Below are positions 664 to 16,694 of a stretch of DNA of 29,953 bases, piece by piece. Origin of the DNA: a virus (taxonomy: Duplodnaviria > Caudoviricetes); the IMG/VR virus record IMGVR_UViG_3300037139_000037, positions 1 through 29,953 of that record. One strand, 5' to 3'. Both the position numbers and the translations under genes were made by a program. Under the pieces are notes generated by a model that saw only the letters and a program-made list of their open reading frames with translations, was not told where the DNA came from and made no database searches. How positions within the stretch are numbered: the first letter of the stretch is position 1; each line of letters starts with the position of its first letter.

Positions 664-1373
664 CATTTATGTTACTTCTCCAAAGGAGAGGCGTTGCATT
701 TCGGCAACGCTCTGCATATCACTATGCAGGTCGGACTATATCATCACCTTGAGGTGCCTGACGTGTAGTCTCTACGGGTTTAGGTAAAGAGTCTGCTGGG
801 AAAATTCCGTTGAGCCGCATCATTTCTCGTCTCAACTCGTCTCTCTTTGCAGTCACTTCGGAACTCAGTTCTTGACTACCAATTCGTCCTGTGTAATAAG
901 TCTTGCAGAACTCTAAGGTAATCAATGCCTGTTTCCTTTTTACAATGAGGTAAGGCAGAATCCCTAGCGTAAATGTCTCGATGTCCTCGTGGCTTGTTCT
1001 GAACCACGAATATCTCGTTTTATACTTTGGGTTTCGGTTCTCGTTACTGCCTATGAGAACCTTGCCCCCAAAAGTCTTGGCTATCCAATCCATCACCTCT
1101 TTATTGGTGTTGGTTACGGAAACCATACATTTGTAGGTTATGTATTTCTGCTTACTTCCGTCCCGTTTCCTTTGAACAGAGAAGGTTTTGACGATGGAGA
1201 AGGAACCCTCACCATCCATGAAACCTGCTAAGTACGAAAACTTCGACTGTTTTGTCATCCTATCTTCCCTCGGGATTGTCTGATTTACCACTAACTTCAG
1301 TATATCAGGGTTTCCCCGATTTAGTCAAGTTTTGCTGTTGTTTTACTTGCCTGCAGCAGCCGCTAAGGTTTTA
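664..1373 (-). mobile_element. Group I intron (710 nt) in the major capsid gene
   Basis: Exon GCCGU pairs with intron GCGGC (P1, U.G at splice site); guide CCUUA pairs with 3' exon UAAGG (P10); R-like GUAGAGACUA and S-like GAUAUAGUCC (P7 GACUA/UAGUC); P9 hairpins; terminal G at 664. Confidence 0.93.
722..1258 (-). CDS. Intron-encoded single-motif LAGLIDADG homing endonuclease
   Basis: YLAGFMDGEGSFSI motif; ATG at 1258; 3' end of the ORF runs through the intron R/S core. Confidence 0.92.
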   Translation of the reverse strand: MTKQSKFSYLAGFMDGEGSFSIVKTFSVQRKRDGSKQKYITYKCMVSVTNTNKEVMDWIAKTFGGKVLIGSNENRNPKYKTRYSWFRTSHEDIETFTLGILPYLIVKRKQALITLEFCKTYYTGRIGSQELSSEVTAKRDELRREMMRLNGIFPADSLPKPVETTRQAPQGDDIVRPA

Positions 1374-1735
1374 ACGGCGAACAGGCCCTTCTGCTTGGAA
1401 TCCGTGGAAGCCTGAGCCAGCCACGAAATCTCGCAGACGTTGAACAGATAGACTGGGGCCAGAGCGAAGGAAGCCCATTGCGAACCGCTGCCACGGAGCA
1501 TGCTGTCTGCGTTGCCCGTGCCTTGCGTAATTGCCGCACCAGCCTGCACCCTGAAGGGCACTCGGAATGATGCACGTTGCGTCCCACCAGCGTTGCTTTG
1601 GTTGGACACAGGAATCTTTGTTGCTTCTGCCTTAAACATGCTGTACGCGGTCGTCCCGTGGAAAACTAGATCGGGGATTTCTTTAGCGAAAGCATCTAAT
1701 TCAACAGCCTCGACGGCTGCTTCCAATAGCGCCAT
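1374..1735 (-). CDS. Major capsid protein, exon 1
   Basis: MALLEAAVEAVELDAFAKEIPDLVF...KGLFAV; ends at the intron 5' splice site; head-module position. Confidence 0.85.
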
Positions 1736-2323: not shown

Positions 2324-2521
2324 TTACAGCGTCTGTGTAGTTGCGCTGATGTCCTGCGCTTGAACCTGAACGGACAACCCTGAGCCCTGTAACTGAACAG
2401 TGATCAAAGTAGTTGGTCCGACATTGGTAGGTACTACGGTTACAAAAGCGGCGATAGTAGCCTGATCAGCTACGTTAATCGGCTTGCCGTCACGTGTGTT
2501 AGGGCCTGAATTTGTTGACAT
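2324..2521 (-). CDS. Small beta-rich virion protein candidate (65 aa)
   Basis: AAGGA SD, ATG 2521; V/T/Q-rich; lies between scaffold and capsid genes. Confidence 0.65.
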   Translation of the reverse strand: MSTNSGPNTRDGKPINVADQATIAAFVTVVPTNVGPTTLITVQLQGSGLSVQVQAQDISATTQTL

Positions 2522-2523
2522 GT

Positions 2524-2979
2524 TTATTCCTTTTCTCTCCACGAGGGAGTGCCGTTTAAGTCGGCTCTTCTACGTAAAATTTCTTTTTTCCACTGATGAT
2601 TGTGACACAGAGTTTGAAAACCCTCTGGCAATCCTTCACGTTTTAGTTTTGCATAGAACGCTACTCCACCGGGGTTGTTGCTAGTCTTCCTGTCTTCATT
2701 TCCGTTGTTCTCTTTATGATCTAAAGACAGCATATCTGGGTCAACTACGCTACACTCAGGCCAGCAACACTGAAGAACACCGGAGTTTCCGTAGTGGGAT
2801 AGAACCTCAATCTTCAGTGCTAACCTTTCTGCACTTCGATTAACATTGACACGGACTCGACATTCTTCGCAGTACTTAATTTCGGCAGGCTTAACTGCGC
2901 AACAAACGCATAAGCCTTCCTTTCTAAGCCGTGCATATCGCTTCCTGTTGTCTTCGTAGTTCTTCTTTCTTCCAGTCAC
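2524..2979 (-). CDS. HNH-family (His-Me) endonuclease
   Basis: CVCC...CEEC zinc motif, then LSLDHKENNG...FQTLCHNH; GTG start abuts the scaffold stop codon. Confidence 0.8.
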   Translation of the reverse strand: MTGRKKNYEDNRKRYARLRKEGLCVCCAVKPAEIKYCEECRVRVNVNRSAERLALKIEVLSHYGNSGVLQCCWPECSVVDPDMLSLDHKENNGNEDRKTSNNPGGVAFYAKLKREGLPEGFQTLCHNHQWKKEILRRRADLNGTPSWREKE

Positions 2980-4455
2980 CTAACGTCTCCACGTTACAAA
3001 CTTAACAGACTTACCATCTGTAGTCTTAACAAAACCACGTCCCGTGATCTGGAGCGTTTGTAGGTCGTTCGTAGAGTATTCCCTTCCGCCAACCTTTATG
3101 GGCTCGCGTACGAGGTTCGTCGGACGAATGGCAACATAGATCGGCTTGCCTGTGGCTACCGATTGTGTAGCTGCCTTTACTGCTGTTTCTTTCTTCACCA
3201 CCGCAGCGGCTGCCTTGCCTGCGGCACTGCCACCCTTGGCGTAGCCAGGGTAGCGGTTTTGGATCGTATTCCGCACGATGTCTGCGGCAATGTTCTTCAG
3301 CGTAGTTTGGTGATACGCTACGATCTTTGCCTTGTCTGGAGACTTTGCATCCCAGAGGGCTTTCATCTGTATCTGATAGGCTCTGTCGGCCCTCAGCGTA
3401 GAGTACAGACGGTCTTTGATTCCGTTGCCAAGATCAACCTTTGTCTCGCGTGGGAAATCCTTGAAGAAAGGCATAGCCAGGAAAGGCTTCAATGCTGCAC
3501 CTAAAGTGGTGTTGTTGAAGTGCTCGCACTCAGTGGCAATTCCCTCTTCAAATACTTTGGTTTTCTCTGCGGCTGCAGTTGTCTTTTCCTTCTCGAAGGC
3601 TTCTTTATCCGCCATGAACTTTTTGTGTTCTGGTGTAACTTCAGGAACCTTCTTACGGTTGGCTTCGTCGGTTTCCATGCCTTTATACCAATCAGTCATG
3701 ACCTTGGTAATGGCTTGGATCATCCTCACATTGGGCGCTGGCTTGCCTTCGGCATCCTTCTCACCTAGTGCTGCGTTCAACTGATCTAACTTGATGTTCA
3801 GCCCAGACTCTTGAAGTCCGTTTACGAAGTGTGGCATGATCTGAGCGTAATAGTCCTTCTCGTTCACTTCTTTCAAGTGACCAAGGAAGTTTCCTACGAC
3901 TTTACCATAGGCATCTTCTTTGCCCTGGGCCTTCATGTCCTCATACACGTTCTTCGATAGTTGTGGGTCTGCAGCGTACAGGAGTTCGTCGGAACCCTTT
4001 ACGGCGTCCATTGCTTCCTGTGTCTTCTGATAGCCCTCTTGTCCACCGATTGCGTCAATGAAGGCTTTTGCTTCCTTCATTTCTTCTACGCCTTTGGGGA
4101 ACACCGTTTTGGCTGCACTCCAACGCTCGTACGCTCCATGTAGTTCTTTCACTACATTTGCATTGGCGGGTGAGGCATCACGCAGCCCCTTTAGCGCTTT
4201 ACGCACGTTCTGTGGGGTAGCCTCGGTGTCTATTGCTTTGTCAGACTCGACTTTCGCCGCTGCTGTTTCTTTTTGCTCTGGTGTTTGCTCTGTGCCGTCT
4301 TCATTTAGCACAGATGCTGTGGGTGTATCCGTAGTCTGAGTTTCGGTTCCTTCTGTGGGGGTTTCAACGTCCGTAGTCTGAGTTTCTACGACTGAGCCTG
4401 CCGCCGTGTCCGTAGATGAATCTATGGACGCGAAGTCAATCATATCTGTTGCCAT
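2980..4455 (-). CDS. Capsid scaffolding/assembly protein (putative)
   Basis: Acidic T/E-rich disordered N-terminus, helical body, between portal and capsid genes; ATG 4455 after AAGGA. Confidence 0.65.
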   Translation of the reverse strand: MATDMIDFASIDSSTDTAAGSVVETQTTDVETPTEGTETQTTDTPTASVLNEDGTEQTPEQKETAAAKVESDKAIDTEATPQNVRKALKGLRDASPANANVVKELHGAYERWSAAKTVFPKGVEEMKEAKAFIDAIGGQEGYQKTQEAMDAVKGSDELLYAADPQLSKNVYEDMKAQGKEDAYGKVVGNFLGHLKEVNEKDYYAQIMPHFVNGLQESGLNIKLDQLNAALGEKDAEGKPAPNVRMIQAITKVMTDWYKGMETDEANRKKVPEVTPEHKKFMADKEAFEKEKTTAAAEKTKVFEEGIATECEHFNNTTLGAALKPFLAMPFFKDFPRETKVDLGNGIKDRLYSTLRADRAYQIQMKALWDAKSPDKAKIVAYHQTTLKNIAADIVRNTIQNRYPGYAKGGSAAGKAAAAVVKKETAVKAATQSVATGKPIYVAIRPTNLVREPIKVGGREYSTNDLQTLQITGRGFVKTTDGKSVKFVTWRR

Positions 4456-9930: not shown

Positions 9931-12348
9931 TTACTGATTTTCGTACTTGGATTGCCACACAGGCTGTTCGGCCTGTCTGAACGATGATGTTTTGTTCTCA
10001 TTCTCCGCATCAAGTTTCATCTTGAGGAAGTGGGCAGCTAGTGGGTCAGTCTTTTTCAACATTGCGACTCGTTCTGCTTCGATCTGTGCTTCAGGCTTCT
10101 TCTTTGCTCCGAGATGTCCGTACAGTCCGTATCGGAAACCATCGTAACAATCATCGCCTTTGGCATCGACCTTCAGCACATCGTCCATCACTTTAGGGTC
10201 ACGCATCAACGACGGGATTGCAAGGATTATCTCCCTGCAGGTGTCGAGGATTACAATTTCGCCCTTCTTGATACAGTTGTACATCAGCGATGCAGAACCA
10301 ATGCGGTCCTGTGTCGCTCGTGTAACTGGCGGTAAGCCCACAAGTTTCAACGCTCGTGAGTACTCATTCGCAGGTGTGCGGTCGTCCATCTGTCTGTTGA
10401 ACTTTTCATGAGAAAAGTAAATTGCTTTGAGTGCGATTGGTTTTCCGTTTGGCAAGTGTGCTTTTGCTTTGATGATCGAGGCTAACTCGTCCATCGTCTT
10501 GCCGCCTGTTACAACGATCTCTTGGAAGCAAACAGTCTTGAGTCTGTAGTTGTCTCCAATTGAGTCTTTAACCAGCGCCTTCGTAAACATGTAGGTGGCG
10601 TTGGCGTGTCCCATGCCCCAGTCTTCTCCAGCCCAGCACGGTTGCCAGTCTTGCCAGATAATAGCCTCGGGGTCTTCTCGTAAGTTGAGCACGTGATACG
10701 AAGGATCGAAGCAGTCGAAGTACTGTCCTTCTGCTACGCCGTCATACCCGTATAGAACTTTGTCCCGCTTCGCCTTCGGCATTGACATCAAACGTGTAAC
10801 GATGCCAGGGTCACGTGCGAGCAGTTCTGGGTTGTCAAAAACTGTCGAGCGTTGGTAAGCATACTCGTCTGGGTCGTAAATCTTGCTCCACTCCCCAGAT
10901 TCCTTAGTCCACCATGTTCCATCCACAGGGTCGCGCTTGGCTTCCTCACCCGGATTCCATGGTTCCTTCTGAACGAACAGCGTGCGGTAGTACTCGTAGT
11001 GTGGACCCAATGGGTTCGTGCACCCTACGATGGTTGGTATCGGGAGATTATTGTGATCGTCCCGTTGGCAAGCTGGGTTGACGATGTTACGTTGGAATAG
11101 CATCATCCATGCATCCGGCGAGAACTGACCACATTCATCAACCAGAATAGCGGGGTAAGCCTGCCCTAAGTACTGCTCGATGTCTCTATCTTTGTTGTTC
11201 TGACAATTATGAACAAGCACACCATTGGCAAAGAACTCATGTTCTTCTTCAACTTGTAAGTCAAATACTGGGACAGGTTCTGAGGTAATCTGCTCGGAAG
11301 GCGTTGCCACAGTTAACGTCACAAAATCGCTTCTTTTTTGTTTGGGCGATAATTGGTTTGTTACATTCCCAGCAGATGATCTTCCAAGGCTCACGGAGCA
11401 GAGGTCTTCCTGTGCGTCCGATGCCGTGAGGGGCGTGGTGTATTCTGTGCTCTCTGATGGGAAGCAGTTCATAGTTGCTTCCATCAAATGGGTTGTTAAG
11501 AGGGTTTTCATCTTTGTGATGAACTTCAAACCTCTCTGGAATAGCACCGTTAGTTTTTTCGTAAACAGCGACGTGCAGGTAAGTTTTGATTCCGTTTCTC
11601 CAGCCTTTATAGTACACACGGTCGGACCTACGGCTTGAGTCTGGATACCTGTAGTAAACAACGTCTCCAAATACGATGGTTTGTGACACAGCAGGCGCAC
11701 GGTCTTTTCTAAATCCTTTTGGCATGTAATCTCCTCTGCGGATTTCCATTCCCCATTGACTAAGAGTTTATGCTCTTTGGTTAGGCTTAATGGACCAAGT
11801 TGGACGACTGCTTTGGTGCCAGTCTGCCCAGACCATAGTATACGCCTAAATCCTTTACGAGTCAATGCTGAGTCTTCCGTGGTTACCTCTTCAATAGGTA
11901 CTAAACCCCTCTGTGTGGTTACTAACGTGCCTTTAGCAAGGCAGTGTCCGAAGACTACCCGCGATCCGTTTGTTAATGTTGCAACGTGCTTCGTGGAGTC
12001 GTAGGTGTAGAGTTCCTTCGGCATGAAGGTGCGAAAATCTGCAATGGCTCCGTTCTCCAGTTCTTTAAAATTTCTTCTCAGAACTAGAAGGTTGCACCCT
12101 TCCCATTGTAGGCAATAGTGCATCACAAAAAACATGAGCCATCCGCAAGTTTTACCTGAGCGGATACCACCCGTACTTAAACATTGTCCTGCTGCAGGTT
12201 GCAAGTACACCTTACCATTACGCATAACATTACGTATCAGTTCTGTCTGCTTCGGTTGGAATCTGAATATCTTGTCGAAGTTCAGTGTTCCATCTGTGTT
12301 TAAGTATGGCTTTGTCTCTACTGCATCTACGATTTTTCTTCGGGGCAC
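9931..12348 (-). CDS. terL: Terminase large subunit (intein-containing)
   Basis: Walker A GGIRSGKT, Walker B ILVDE, TNP coupling motif, nuclease-domain DWG and DDCYDGFRY. Confidence 0.93.
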   Translation of the reverse strand: MPRRKIVDAVETKPYLNTDGTLNFDKIFRFQPKQTELIRNVMRNGKVYLQPAAGQCLSTGGIRSGKTCGWLMFFVMHYCLQWEGCNLLVLRRNFKELENGAIADFRTFMPKELYTYDSTKHVATLTNGSRVVFGHCLAKGTLVTTQRGLVPIEEVTTEDSALTRKGFRRILWSGQTGTKAVVQLGPLSLTKEHKLLVNGEWKSAEEITCQKDLEKTVRLLCHKPSYLETLFTTGIQTQAVGPTVCTIKAGETESKLTCTSLFTKKLTVLFQRGLKFITKMKTLLTTHLMEATMNCFPSESTEYTTPLTASDAQEDLCSVSLGRSSAGNVTNQLSPKQKRSDFVTLTVATPSEQITSEPVPVFDLQVEEEHEFFANGVLVHNCQNNKDRDIEQYLGQAYPAILVDECGQFSPDAWMMLFQRNIVNPACQRDDHNNLPIPTIVGCTNPLGPHYEYYRTLFVQKEPWNPGEEAKRDPVDGTWWTKESGEWSKIYDPDEYAYQRSTVFDNPELLARDPGIVTRLMSMPKAKRDKVLYGYDGVAEGQYFDCFDPSYHVLNLREDPEAIIWQDWQPCWAGEDWGMGHANATYMFTKALVKDSIGDNYRLKTVCFQEIVVTGGKTMDELASIIKAKAHLPNGKPIALKAIYFSHEKFNRQMDDRTPANEYSRALKLVGLPPVTRATQDRIGSASLMYNCIKKGEIVILDTCREIILAIPSLMRDPKVMDDVLKVDAKGDDCYDGFRYGLYGHLGAKKKPEAQIEAERVAMLKKTDPLAAHFLKMKLDAENENKTSSFRQAEQPVWQSKYENQ
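11206..11943 (-). mobile_element. Intein (246 aa) in the TerL ATPase domain
   Basis: Block A CLAKGTLVTT, block B LTKEH, blocks F/G VFDLQVEEEHEFFANGVLVHN followed by Cys+1. Confidence 0.93.
11261..11725 (-). CDS. HNH endonuclease overprinted in another frame within the intein
   Basis: GAGGAG SD before ATG 11725; YLHVAVYE..NGAIP...VHHKDENPLNN...NYELL...EH; C-terminal CWEC/CDVNC zinc ribbon. Confidence 0.85.
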   Translation of the reverse strand: MPKGFRKDRAPAVSQTIVFGDVVYYRYPDSSRRSDRVYYKGWRNGIKTYLHVAVYEKTNGAIPERFEVHHKDENPLNNPFDGSNYELLPIREHRIHHAPHGIGRTGRPLLREPWKIICWECNKPIIAQTKKKRFCDVNCGNAFRADYLRTCPSI

Positions 12349-13856: not shown

Positions 13857-14216
13857 TTACCACACGTTCTGAAACGCTCCAGCTTTCGCTATGCGCTTCA
13901 TTTCTTGCTGGAATGCACTACGTGGGTCTTGTGACTCACAGTCCGCATTCGGTTTTGCTATGTGACACATCTCATGCAGTAAGTCTGATGCTCTGTGCCG
14001 CATGTTTGAAGCTGGTGTCTTTCTAATCACAATCTTTGGCGGTCCTTCTTTGTAGAAATAGGTTACCGCGCAAGTGCTGCGATGCTTTCCGTCCTTCGTG
14101 TTTACCTTATCCAATTTTGGCGCGTAGTACAGTTTCACACCGTCAGGCAATCTGCCACCGAAGAACTCTCGGTTATAGTGGTTGTACAACTTTGTCAAGT
14201 AAGAAGAGGCACGCAT
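13857..14216 (-). CDS. SprT-like zinc metalloprotease
   Basis: YNHYNREFFGGRLP and LLHEMCH (HExxH); GGAG SD before ATG 14216. Confidence 0.75.
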   Translation of the reverse strand: MRASSYLTKLYNHYNREFFGGRLPDGVKLYYAPKLDKVNTKDGKHRSTCAVTYFYKEGPPKIVIRKTPASNMRHRASDLLHEMCHIAKPNADCESQDPRSAFQQEMKRIAKAGAFQNVW

Positions 14217-14301
14217 AATGAACTCCACAAGCCCACCGTTTACACTTTCGGGCAAGATAGAGTGAGGCATATTGCTGCGCGGCCTCTGCGCGTACAAACG
14301 T

Positions 14302-14333
14302 AGAAAGCCCCAACTCGGTTAAGAGTTGAGGCT
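14302..14333 (-). terminator. Probable intrinsic terminator
   Basis: AGCCUCAACUC/GAGUUGGGGCU stem followed by a short U-rich tail. Confidence 0.55.
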
Positions 14334-14335
14334 TG

Positions 14336-15120
14336 GGTCCGACGTTCTTCACATCGGAGGTGTAGTTGAAATGTCCTGTTACCAGCCCATTCACACTGCG
14401 CTCGAATCCGGCGAACAGTGCCCAATGGGGCTTACAAGTTTTAGGGTACAGGTGAATCCCCTATGCCCGTTTAGGCTCTGGGTCCAGAGTGTGCTCATCG
14501 TTGGATGCATCTCTTGTTATGCGGTGATGGCCGCGATCCCAACTACGCAACGAAGCGATAGGGAAGCCTTCCTGAGCGCGACTGGTCTCTTGCCATAGGC
14601 GTGAGTAGCCAGCTAGGTTGATGAGGATATCTAGAACGCTACAACCGTACGTTCCTCGACGCTGCTTATAGATGACGGAGGGGAACAGCGAACCTTTCTC
14701 GTCACGTTCGTCCCTATGGTGCCACTGAAGGCCCAGCACTCGGGACATGCAACTGAGGGCGGGTTTCAGCCGCTACACGAGGCGTAGCTTATGCGCCTCT
14801 CTCAATTACATGCGGTTTTATTGAATGAGAATCCGCCACTCTGCAGATCGAGGGGTCATGACTTCCCAAACATCTGCTTTGTACGGTTTCCGTTCCCCGT
14901 TCCGTAGTCTGCGGCGAAAGCAGAGCGGATGTCCACAGCCCCGTCTCTCAAAGAGTGCGGTGTGGCTTCGATGATTGCGGTAGTCGTGAGCTACACCTCC
15001 GCTAAGCATCATCCATGCGCCCTAAGGCGACTTTCGACAAGCCTGACCGCCAGCACGAATGCTGCATGCTTTATCTCGTATCCCTAATGGGGAAGTCAGG
15101 AAACGTGTCGAATCTTTTGC
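14336..15120 (-). ncRNA. Candidate large structured ncRNA (~780 nt)
   Basis: No credible CDS; many nested inverted repeats; 11-bp long-range complement 14355-14365/14991-15001; begins right after tRNA-Asn and ends at a terminator. Confidence 0.6.
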
Positions 15121-15125
15121 ATGTA

Positions 15126-15201
15126 TGGCTGGCACGGAGGGTGTCGAACCCCCAACCACTGCATTAACAGTGCAGCGCTCTGCCAATTGAGCTACATGCC
15201 A
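15126..15201 (-). tRNA. tRNA-Asn(GUU)
   Basis: 76-nt cloverleaf; CUGCA-CUGUUAA-UGCAG anticodon arm; GUUCGA T-loop; encoded CCA. Confidence 0.95.
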
Positions 15202-15206
15202 ATCTT

Positions 15207-15280
15207 TGGTGGACCGTGGCAGATTCGCACTGCCGTTTGATGCGTGCAAGGCAACTGTCCTCCTACTAGACGAACAGCCC
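15207..15280 (-). tRNA. tRNA-Ala(UGC), atypical
   Basis: Cloverleaf with G3:U70, discriminator A and CCA; anticodon UGC; T-loop UGCGAAU. Confidence 0.85.
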
Positions 15281-15283
15281 ACG

Positions 15284-15487
15284 TTAAACTTTTGGAATCT
15301 TGTAATGGTTCCGCTTTGCTGCTTCGAGTTCTGCTACGCATTCGTCTCGCACTGTCGATGAAATGTATACTGTACTTGCGAACTCTATAAGGTCTGCCAT
15401 GCGCTGATCGAACTTCTCTAAACTACTTTCGTTTGCTTCCCTCAGTGCGAAGAGGGGTTCCTCGTCCTGCGGAATGTCATTGCTCAT
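15284..15487 (-). CDS. Hypothetical protein (67 aa)
   Basis: ATG 15487; protein-like acidic helical composition; weak SD. Confidence 0.55.
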   Translation of the reverse strand: MSNDIPQDEEPLFALREANESSLEKFDQRMADLIEFASTVYISSTVRDECVAELEAAKRNHYKIPKV

Positions 15488-15496
15488 AATTTGTCT

Positions 15497-15785
15497 CGAA
15501 GGGAGAGTCAATGCTCTCCCCTCTCGGTTGTTGCAGCTTCACGTTGGGACTTCCGCTCTAAGGCTGCCCAATACGCTATTAGCGCAATCTTGGTACTGCG
15601 CAGGATGGTATGTCCTGCTTCGGTTCTTACAATGGAACCAGAACTTGTCGATGGCGAGCGGTGGCTTGTTTTCCACCGCACTGTTTACAGCCTACGTCGC
15701 CAATGTCTAGCCGGGGCCGTCACAACCTAGAAAGGAGAAGACTAGGGACTGCCCCGGCGTATGCTGTGGGGTTGCCCCACTGAGG
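15497..15785 (-). ncRNA. Candidate structured ncRNA or leader (~290 nt)
   Basis: Back-to-back GC-rich stems and no convincing CDS. Confidence 0.45.
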
Positions 15786-15813
15786 GTATGTCTCATTTCA
15801 AGATACACTACAA

Positions 15814-16149
15814 TTATACCATGCCCTCCAAATCCTCAAGGAACGGCTGTCTTTGCTGATCCAGAATCTGTTCCCTGCGCTGCTTCTCTTCGTAGGCCAG
15901 GTTCTGTACATCATCCTCTATCCTACTCATTCTAATAGTAGCTAGTGCTACTTCTTTGGTTTCCTCCAGATACCGCCTAAGGCTCAATCGCTCGCCTAGT
16001 GGTTCTGGTTCCTTTGAATCTTGTAAAGCCCATCCGGCTCTGTACAACCAGTCGAGCACGGTTTCTAAAGGTAAACTGTTGAGAACTTTCAAAAATGTGC
16101 GTGACTTCTGCTCTGCTCTTTCGGTTTTGGTTAGTATGTGAGTTGTCAT
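15814..16149 (-). CDS. Hypothetical protein, probably leaderless
   Basis: 111 aa; ATG lies 6 nt downstream of a -10 box. Confidence 0.75.
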   Translation of the reverse strand: MTTHILTKTERAEQKSRTFLKVLNSLPLETVLDWLYRAGWALQDSKEPEPLGERLSLRRYLEETKEVALATIRMSRIEDDVQNLAYEEKQRREQILDQQRQPFLEDLEGMV

Positions 16150-16155
16150 ACAAAC

Positions 16156-16184
16156 AGTATAGCAGCGCCCGGTAGCATTGTCAA
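16156..16184 (-). promoter_or_regulatory. sigma70-type promoter
   Basis: TTGACA-17 nt-TATACT with TG extension. Confidence 0.8.
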
Positions 16185-16448
16185 CTAAAAAGTGGTAAGT
16201 TACTTATTTTCAACAAGATGCATGCAGTGTGTAGAAACACTTTCCTTGTAAACAACTCATAACAATGAACTTACACATCCGTTCCACTTTTATTTGGACC
16301 CGCATGTTATTCTAAGACTACCCCTCCCCGGCAGATACCTATACATGTAATAGACACCTCCTGAACGTAGGTAACGTGTTACCATAATAAACCAACAAGT
16401 TAGCTCATGCATTGGCTGCTAAGATGTTGAAAGGAAAGAACCATTTAT

Positions 16449-16694
16449 ATGCTAATGTCAGCAAGTGCTAGGGCACACCGTAGCAAACTGCGGCAGTCCC
16501 TGAACTTAGAGTTAAACGTCTGGCTCCAGCGGGAGAAGGACATGGAAGTCGCGCTCGCACTGGGCAAGTCTGGCGTCCCCGAGAAGGTGGCATTCATCCG
16601 ACAGGAACAGGCGAAGCTGCGGAAGGCCCTGCGGTCGCTCGACCGAGGCTTCGGACGGCAACGGGCTTGGTCACAGGGCAAATTACTTTACTAG
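16449..16694 (+). CDS. Hypothetical basic protein (81 aa)
   Basis: First gene of the plus-strand module; stop overlaps the next SD (TAGGAGG). Confidence 0.7.
   Translation: MLMSASARAHRSKLRQSLNLELNVWLQREKDMEVALALGKSGVPEKVAFIRQEQAKLRKALRSLDRGFGRQRAWSQGKLLY

Follow-up and report, generated by a model that had tools for sequence, protein, structure and literature searches.

We found an uncatalogued family of large modular phage noncoding RNAs (ncRNAs), the longest of which lies in a 29,953-nt stretch of viral DNA that was analysed as a whole (hereafter, the window). There it occupies the minus strand from about 15113 to 14373, downstream of tRNA-Ala and then tRNA-Asn, with 10 nt between the CCA of the latter and the element. 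The element is organized as beads on a string, i.e., as self-contained hairpin and pseudoknot modules in the order A-S-E-e-g/G-C-x-B-J-D-K-M-L-P (Table 1), and as excised it measures 755 nt. The structured ncRNA is real, and the strong evidence for it is covariation among 22 full-length versions, not folding energy; in addition, contig depths in metatranscriptomes strongly suggest, without proving, that the RNA is highly abundant. Large RNAs with a defined structure are rare in bacteria and phages, and what the tRNA-linked GOLLD and ROOL RNAs do is an open question.

The window comes from a phage genome; it encodes DNA polymerase A, RNase H, and a terminase with an intein, contains a group I intron, and is rich in HNH/EndoVII genes, with LAGLIDADG in addition. 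The phage belongs to an uncultured clade of ~105-kb peat and permafrost phages. A related record of 103,946 bases has a completeness rating of 94%, and those sequencing runs with this stretch that have a stated origin come from peat and permafrost. For the window terminase, 423 relatives reach E 1e-30 or better, and the closest matches among cultured phages are ~25% identical.

Table 1. Features of the modular RNA locus in the window, listed in the direction of the minus strand; fractions refer to the full-length versions that carry a module.
Feature	Position	Strand	Evidence or remark
Extended -10 promoter-like box (TG-n-TATAAT)	15813..15821	-	sequence; putative operon start
Conserved ~70-75-aa phage ORF, same putative operon	15284..15511	-	tblastn, 13/21 relatives
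tRNA-Ala (UGC), CCA encoded	15207..15280	-	cmscan RF00005, 50.4 bits
tRNA-Asn (GUU), CCA encoded	15126..15201	-	ARAGORN and cmscan
Predicted mature modular ncRNA, ~740 nt	14373..15113	-	22 full-length versions, deep RNA contigs
Module A, 5' branched hairpin domain, 10/22	15034..15113	-	alignment, compensatory changes
Module S, short hairpin	15016..15033	-	
Module E, hairpin with UAGCU loop, 4/22	14970..15013	-	GUG/CAC to CUG/CAG change
Module e, hairpin, 3/22	14931..14969	-	
Module g/G, two linked hairpins, 10/22	14881..14930	-	covarying stems
Module C, hairpin with self-complementary loop, 12/22 (13 copies)	14842..14878	-	candidate kissing loop
Module B, branched hairpin with CAUAAGCUA loop, 5/22	14748..14817	-	compensatory changes
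Module J, 2/22, duplicated in L078	14710..14747	-	
Module D, two tandem H-type pseudoknots, 6/22	14617..14709	-	helix covariation
Module K, hairpin with conserved internal loop, 19/22	14582..14615	-	
Optional 120-nt block: module M (window-unique) and module L (4/22)	14462..14581	-	
Module P, 3' pseudoknot domain, 22/22	14375..14461	-	14452-14448 pairs with 14379-14375
Small trailer hairpin	14338..14358	-	sequence; variants in L009, L016, L079, L080, L090
Terminator-like hairpin, weak U tract	14301..14334	-	sequence

Relatives were collected via neighboring proteins, terminase alignment, and motif patterns, which gave 21 further distinct full-length versions of 227-594 nt, all at one genomic slot that precedes the terminator and the genes for the small and large terminase subunits. 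Kept outside the 22 were duplicates (L005, L010, L012-L015, L042, L044-L047, L050, L081, L082, and re-fetched copies) and partial or divergent loci (L001, L003, L004, L008, L024, and L087). Among 45 loci from the terminase scan, those that lack the element either have sequence only from a point past the slot or show no relationship (L093 and L094, 23% identity), and all clade loci that reach the slot hold the element or a remnant. The element is cut off at contig ends in L001 and L024, and diverged versions are present at three more loci, L003 (4150-4500), L004, and L087 (2480-3010). In L003, the P-like hairpin seems to pair with a distant strand on the other side of module K, and immediately upstream there is a separate extended -10 box. 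In L008, the 3' half of the element has been lost beside an insertion, and therefore the RNA may be dispensable. In L008 (60-560), where the 3' modules are gone, the insert that breaks the element resembles the end of an IS605/tnpB-type gene as read from its translation, and L021 has a weak HEARO match at 99-360 (E 0.018).

Outside the clade, no modules were found: nine pattern matches there are isolated stretches of 19-27 nt, mostly within long open frames, and the phage and plasmid collections yielded nothing past a single 33-nt match at E 0.7. Likewise, blastn of the element alone against 50,697 phage records gave no match, and with the tRNAs included in the query the matches to phages were confined to the tRNAs. 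Chance matches of the pattern scans were dropped on inspection (L017, L019, and L030 of 16, L038 of 7, L040 and L049 of 11, 6 of 6 genome-contig matches, and 3 of 10 and 6 of 14). Within the clade, module P is present as a single copy per genome in all five records.

The original prediction, made from the window sequence, described this region as a gap without a credible coding sequence, and this description holds. The four overlapping ORFs of the gap (64-95 aa) show no codon-like conservation: in tblastn against the 21 relatives they matched in short pieces only, several with stops, and no reading frame was conserved end to end, whereas the positive-control ORF at 15284-15511 matched in 13 of the 21. 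The helix strings named at that stage were all found, reading the minus strand, and the collection of homologs for covariation, which the prediction had proposed as a check, now comprises the 22 full-length versions and did reveal covarying helices. Compensatory changes in relatives support CCUGAC/GUCAGG, the base helix UCGACA/UGUCGA, and GAGGCG/CGCCUC. GUCCC/GGGAC is present as well, but its sole other carrier, L078, has zero variation, and CACUG/CAGUG lies within a hairpin that is always present yet variable.

The strongest covariation is in the pseudoknots. Module P, an H-type pseudoknot whose long loop contains a hairpin, has 94% of cells paired across the 22 versions, with two-sided changes in 10 of 14 pairs; its covariation score was reached by none of 500 shuffles, a control that related sequences can beat, and slid controls drop to 30-51% paired. 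Module F, a ~35-nt H-type pseudoknot with an invariant GCCA in its loop, has 97% of cells paired and 7 of 10 pairs covarying. The weight of this evidence rests on the many distinct pair types (up to five per pair) and the slid controls. The helices of modules D, A, K, and C were scored with an anchored script without a shuffle control (MAFFT alignments were too gappy); in module D, both pseudoknot helices vary in sequence while 4-5 of 5 pairs are kept in all six carriers, and the same script revealed compensatory changes in modules A, B, E, and g/G. Folding energy alone is weak evidence. Against shuffles, a comparison that the prediction had also named, z was -3.64 for 14290-15125 with the terminator (20 shuffles), -1.93 for the plus strand, and -1.76 when the element by itself was folded locally (+0.15 to -4.61 across the 22 versions), which is modest support.

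Several modules have further distinguishing features. Versions that do not have module A have other 5' hairpins instead, and the second hairpin of module g/G has a conserved 10-nt loop with AAA at its end. The count for module C leaves out two false calls (L063 at 263 and L090 at 109). Module F is present in 18 of 22 versions, a count taken apart from the order script, which under-counts F; its model (R2) gave no match in the window, where module M, with a similar GGCCAUC string, may be a diverged F. Neither M nor x matched any of the 21 relatives in blast searches.

By contrast with these local structures, the single ornate fold closed by long-range helices that was first proposed is not supported by comparison with the relatives, which are a mosaic of independent modules ranging from 227 to 755 nt. 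The 11-bp pairing CGGAGGUGUAG/CUACACCUCCG (15001-14991 with 14365-14355) is found in only one of the four RNAs carrying module E, which contains its 5' strand, and 5.3% of 2000 shuffles yielded a helix like it; part of its 3' strand is occupied by the trailer hairpin. Similarly, the partner in the 14-nt pairing AUCCGCUCUGC/GCAGAGUGGCGGAU is specific to the window among five carriers. Both long-range helices were rejected as not conserved among carriers, and conserved local hairpins take up both strands in their place.

The presence, copy number, and sometimes the order of modules vary among versions. The window, L009, and L011 have terminase exteins that are 97-100% identical, yet the three share no modules other than A, K, and P. 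Module order is otherwise mostly colinear, and the majority of swaps involve the window: the usual order is B, C, G, and that of the window is G, C, B, with G before C versus C before G in five relatives, and C before B versus B before C in two. In addition, K precedes L in three versions versus L before K in L063, modules C and J are each doubled in L078, and module E sits inside the 5' stem in L043. Variation is also seen between close strains, as contigs of a near-identical strain without the 120 nt of modules M and L join 14461 to 14582 in RNA runs X10, X18, and X19 and in DNA run X3. Joins with B before C, as in L006, are present in contigs of three RNA runs.

Contig depth was examined in 8 of the 24 runs that contain the stretch (all six RNA runs and two DNA runs). 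In six peat metatranscriptomes, element contigs were ~6-340 times deeper than flanking-gene contigs, a comparison affected by the selection of runs for holding the stretch. The depth of the element, taken from contigs with no mismatch inside it, was 14424 in X10 (leader and tRNA contig 399, flanking and downstream genes 43-79), 2392-4371 in X16 (flanks 14-39), 924 in X17 with one gap (flanks 16-33), 118 in X18 (flanks 4-18), 126-174 in X19 (flanks ~5), and 218-349 in X20 (flanks 5-11). The DNA runs were flat over the element (8-19 in X2 and 29-71 in X3). Single RNA contigs bridge several modules, including one of 411 nt at depth 14424 (X10) and one of 511 nt at depth 924 (X17). Bins without RNA cover (15925-16500) were excluded as evidence. 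A discrete transcript, whose absence would have spoken against the prediction, is suggested by deep RNA contigs over the element, but by depth, a poor measure of expression that carries neither strand nor ends, in runs that may contain DNA.

As to processing, the available text of one source gives RNWUU as the RNase E consensus (PMC5222698). This motif is present 3' of the pseudoknot in 19 of 22 versions versus ~8% expected, and it is rare within the element (0.75% of positions); its presence at the 5' end of all 22 is circular, as the motif was used to define the start. The mature RNA would run from 15113 to 14373, between two RNase E-like sites of this kind.

The tRNAs and the ncRNA are probably co-transcribed from the extended -10 box, because of the 10-nt gap between tRNA-Asn and the element, the box itself, and one bridging RNA contig (15024-15769). 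An identical box is present upstream in L007. Pfam gave no match for the ORF between the box and the tRNAs. The tRNA-Ala was missed by ARAGORN and detected by cmscan only, and its counterparts in relatives are called tRNA-Ala. The gap had been described as bounded by the tRNA-Asn CCA and a terminator; the former boundary stands. At the latter, the U tract of the terminator-like hairpin is weak, the terminator scan did not report the hairpin, and low-depth RNA contigs run across it. In relatives, the matching position is occupied by a hairpin whose tail is U-rich.

Other structures were seen around the RNA. The leader between the box and the 75-aa ORF (15520-15810, minus strand) has more small hairpins, partly conserved in relatives, and lies under the RNA contig of depth 399. 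A CCA-ending tRNA-like element, not called by ARAGORN, lies 5' of the RNA in L002 (4457-4536), with similar ones in L016, L027, L045, L078, and L090. Weak matches to YrlA (Y RNA-like) were found in L037 (E 0.3) and, in another tRNA-like piece, in L020 (E 0.002). A conserved hairpin leader precedes HNH genes flanking the RNA in L001 (20-90), L002 (5070-5160), L045, L078 (5025-5100), and L084 (4400-4470).

The original prediction also proposed a member of the GOLLD or ROOL classes or a new class. A large, conserved, structured, and apparently highly expressed phage ncRNA beside tRNAs and outside Rfam is what we found, but not membership in GOLLD or ROOL. No Rfam family matched the element in the window at E up to 1, in 14200-15900 at E up to 10, or in 13 related loci at E up to 2. 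Among the families suggested for comparison, GOLLD (RF02032) had no match in the window, the 13 loci, or five phage records (where one control genome did give a match, below the cut-off), and neither did ROOL (RF03087), without a positive control in the phage records. OLE, RNase P, tmRNA (also by ARAGORN), group I/II introns, and self-cleaving ribozymes had no match at the element, in a cmscan analysis that did detect a group I intron at 712-1383.

GOLLD is a large phage ncRNA of unknown function found by tRNAs, with a common P1-P27 fold, a ~375-nt conserved 3' domain, and a variable 5' region (PMC12990946; 10.1101/2024.12.08.627333). Judged by the available text of these sources, the element resembles GOLLD in being phage-borne, near tRNA genes, and in having a conserved 3' and a variable 5' part, but its shared core is one ~90-nt pseudoknot, its RNAs are as short as 227 nt, and its modules are exchanged; the family has neither the P1-P27 structure nor the large conserved 3' domain. 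ROOL is likewise described, in the parts available, as large, abundant, phage- and tRNA-associated, and containing several pseudoknots (PMC5737381; 10.1101/2024.12.08.627333). The element shares that context, size, abundance, and set of pseudoknots, but it does not match the ROOL model, and its module content, order, and length are variable as opposed to a fixed architecture.

The small H-type pseudoknot units of the family (F, D, and P) are reminiscent of type III antitoxins and pseudo-ToxI. As far as the available text of the report goes, the pseudo-ToxI of phage phiTE is a string of small pseudoknot repeats that evolves via expansion and recombination and suppresses ToxIN through mimicry, as a decoy, and ToxI arrays consist of near-identical 36-nt repeats that are cut into units (PMC3475682). 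By contrast, the modules of the element are dissimilar, mostly single-copy, and apparently kept in one RNA, and self-comparison of the window element gave no direct repeat longer than 9 nt. RNAC and RNAD of T4 are small RNAs of unknown role from the phage tRNA region, according to the accessible part of the source (PMC3014915). The likeness is in that origin, and the sequence comparison was the negative blastn against phage records. MISL RNA is a large bacterial RNA with mostly independent substructures; the likeness lies in this general description only, and the 4227 Rfam models that gave no match for the element perhaps do not include MISL. In the literature covered, which leaves out most subscription papers, neither the element family nor a module-swapping phage RNA is described; the alignments of PMC10690425 and PMC5737381 lie outside this comparison, and single modules could be listed there.

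As for function, we tentatively favor, at somewhat short of an even chance, an abundant multi-decoy RNA whose modules would each sequester a different protein of the host, RNA-binding or anti-phage. This is the best fit to autonomous modules with invariant unpaired bases, fast turnover, abundance, and position in a tRNA cluster, and there are precedents, in the available parts of the reports, in the phiTE pseudo-ToxI (PMC3475682) and in tRNA clusters that act in counter-defence (PMC13728456). The RNA would be transcribed with the tRNAs from the extended -10 box (15821-15813) and freed by RNase E-type cuts at RNWUU sites at both ends; the 5' hairpin and 3' pseudoknot would shield it from decay, while the conserved loops would be displayed as binding sites, possibly with dimerization through the palindromic loop of module C. 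Modules would then be turned over by recombination at short shared linkers under shifting host pressure. Against decoys, the modules match no known antitoxin, riboswitch, or other Rfam family, and none was detected beyond the clade; attempts to assign a host gave no result that would point to a target protein. A bolder version, which we consider rather doubtful, is an RNA cassette array, in which the 3' pseudoknot, always present, and a 5' cap that can be exchanged would form a stable chassis for a dozen or more swappable and duplicable aptamer-like folds, i.e., a reprogrammable protein-free counter-defence sponge; if so, modules F, D, and P would be new pseudoknot families themselves.

It is also conceivable, if unlikely, that the molecule self-assembles from RNA alone into a scaffold, whether a dimer, a cage, or a condensate, and works like GOLLD and ROOL, its modules being contact surfaces that can be exchanged. 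In its context, range of sizes, and abundance it is like GOLLD and ROOL, and the conserved 3' and variable 5' parts are as in GOLLD, going by the available text on both. The loops of module C change yet mostly stay self-complementary: 10 of 13 copies have the core GAUC, the window has CAUG (UCAUGA at 14861-14856), and two copies have the wobble form GAUU, and the change from GAUC to CAUG is a double change that kept self-pairing, although it is one event. The tips of one module K subtype, noticed after the fact, are AGCU, UGCA, GAUC, or AUGCAU. Palindromic 4-mers are present in 26 of 104 distinct predicted loops versus 17.4 expected (p 0.008), but without GAUC/CAUG-type loops the count is 16 of 93 versus 13.8 (p 0.27); the excess disappears, and we rejected a general enrichment of palindromic loops. 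Therefore, a single kissing-loop module, for which C is a plausible candidate, is suggested rather than general multivalency. Moreover, module C is limited to 12 of 22 versions, the two GAUU loops form a weak self-duplex or none, and a 3.3-fold variation in length, changes in order, and the failure of both tested long-range helices to be conserved all argue against a scaffold.

The remaining alternatives are less probable. The element could be a precursor that is cut into individual small RNAs, including ribozymes that would act on the tRNA operon in the manner of theta ribozymes, and its autonomous modules 3' of tRNA genes and several compact pseudoknots with invariant loop bases would suit this; it is nonetheless improbable, as single deep RNA contigs extend over many modules, internal RNWUU is rare, and no ribozyme family matched at E up to 10. 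HDV-like ribozymes require a hairpin inside the first helix, and module P has none there. A cis-acting leader that controls terminator read-through into the packaging and head genes seems to us improbable: in every relative the element does lie 5' of the terminator and of the genes for terminase and portal, the terminator is crossed by low-depth RNA contigs, and the 11-bp pairing of the window would compete with the trailer hairpin, but the steady-state depth far exceeds that of downstream genes and points to a stable product, the competing pairing is missing in three of four carriers, and HNH genes sit between element and terminator in L002 and L078. We likewise give little credence to near-neutral accumulation of nuclease-resistant structures that spread by recombination and homing and bring the phage no advantage. 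The wealth of HNH/EndoVII genes in the window, slippage repeats in L078, and the loss in L008 are in its favor, but repeated compensatory changes and invariant unpaired bases are seen in phages down to 61% terminase identity, and retention of the element or a remnant at every clade locus reaching the slot also speaks against it.

Whichever applies, the natural variants already delete, duplicate, and reorder domains and are ready-made controls, including the short versions of 227-242 nt and the strain that lacks 120 nt. The covarying pseudoknots, at 35-95 nt, are of a size that suits screens for structure and binding. Should the modules be decoys, phages would own a route to counter-defence built from modular RNA; should they be contact surfaces, RNA assemblies would be seen to evolve through domain shuffling.

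Elsewhere in the window, the group I intron (712-1383, minus strand; 39 bits, E 9e-7 by cmscan) holds a LAGLIDADG ORF and splits a gene that we take, from its position, to be the major capsid gene. The terminase gene (9931-12348, minus strand) has its intein at residues 137-382, within which a separate 162-aa HNH ORF (11261-11749) lies in a different frame. The gene 3' of the terminator (13857-14297 on the minus strand in the window, 6687-7091 in L009) exists in two distant forms that are ~25% identical; Pfam gave no match, and both forms have the string HEMCH, which we take to be a zinc-protease motif.
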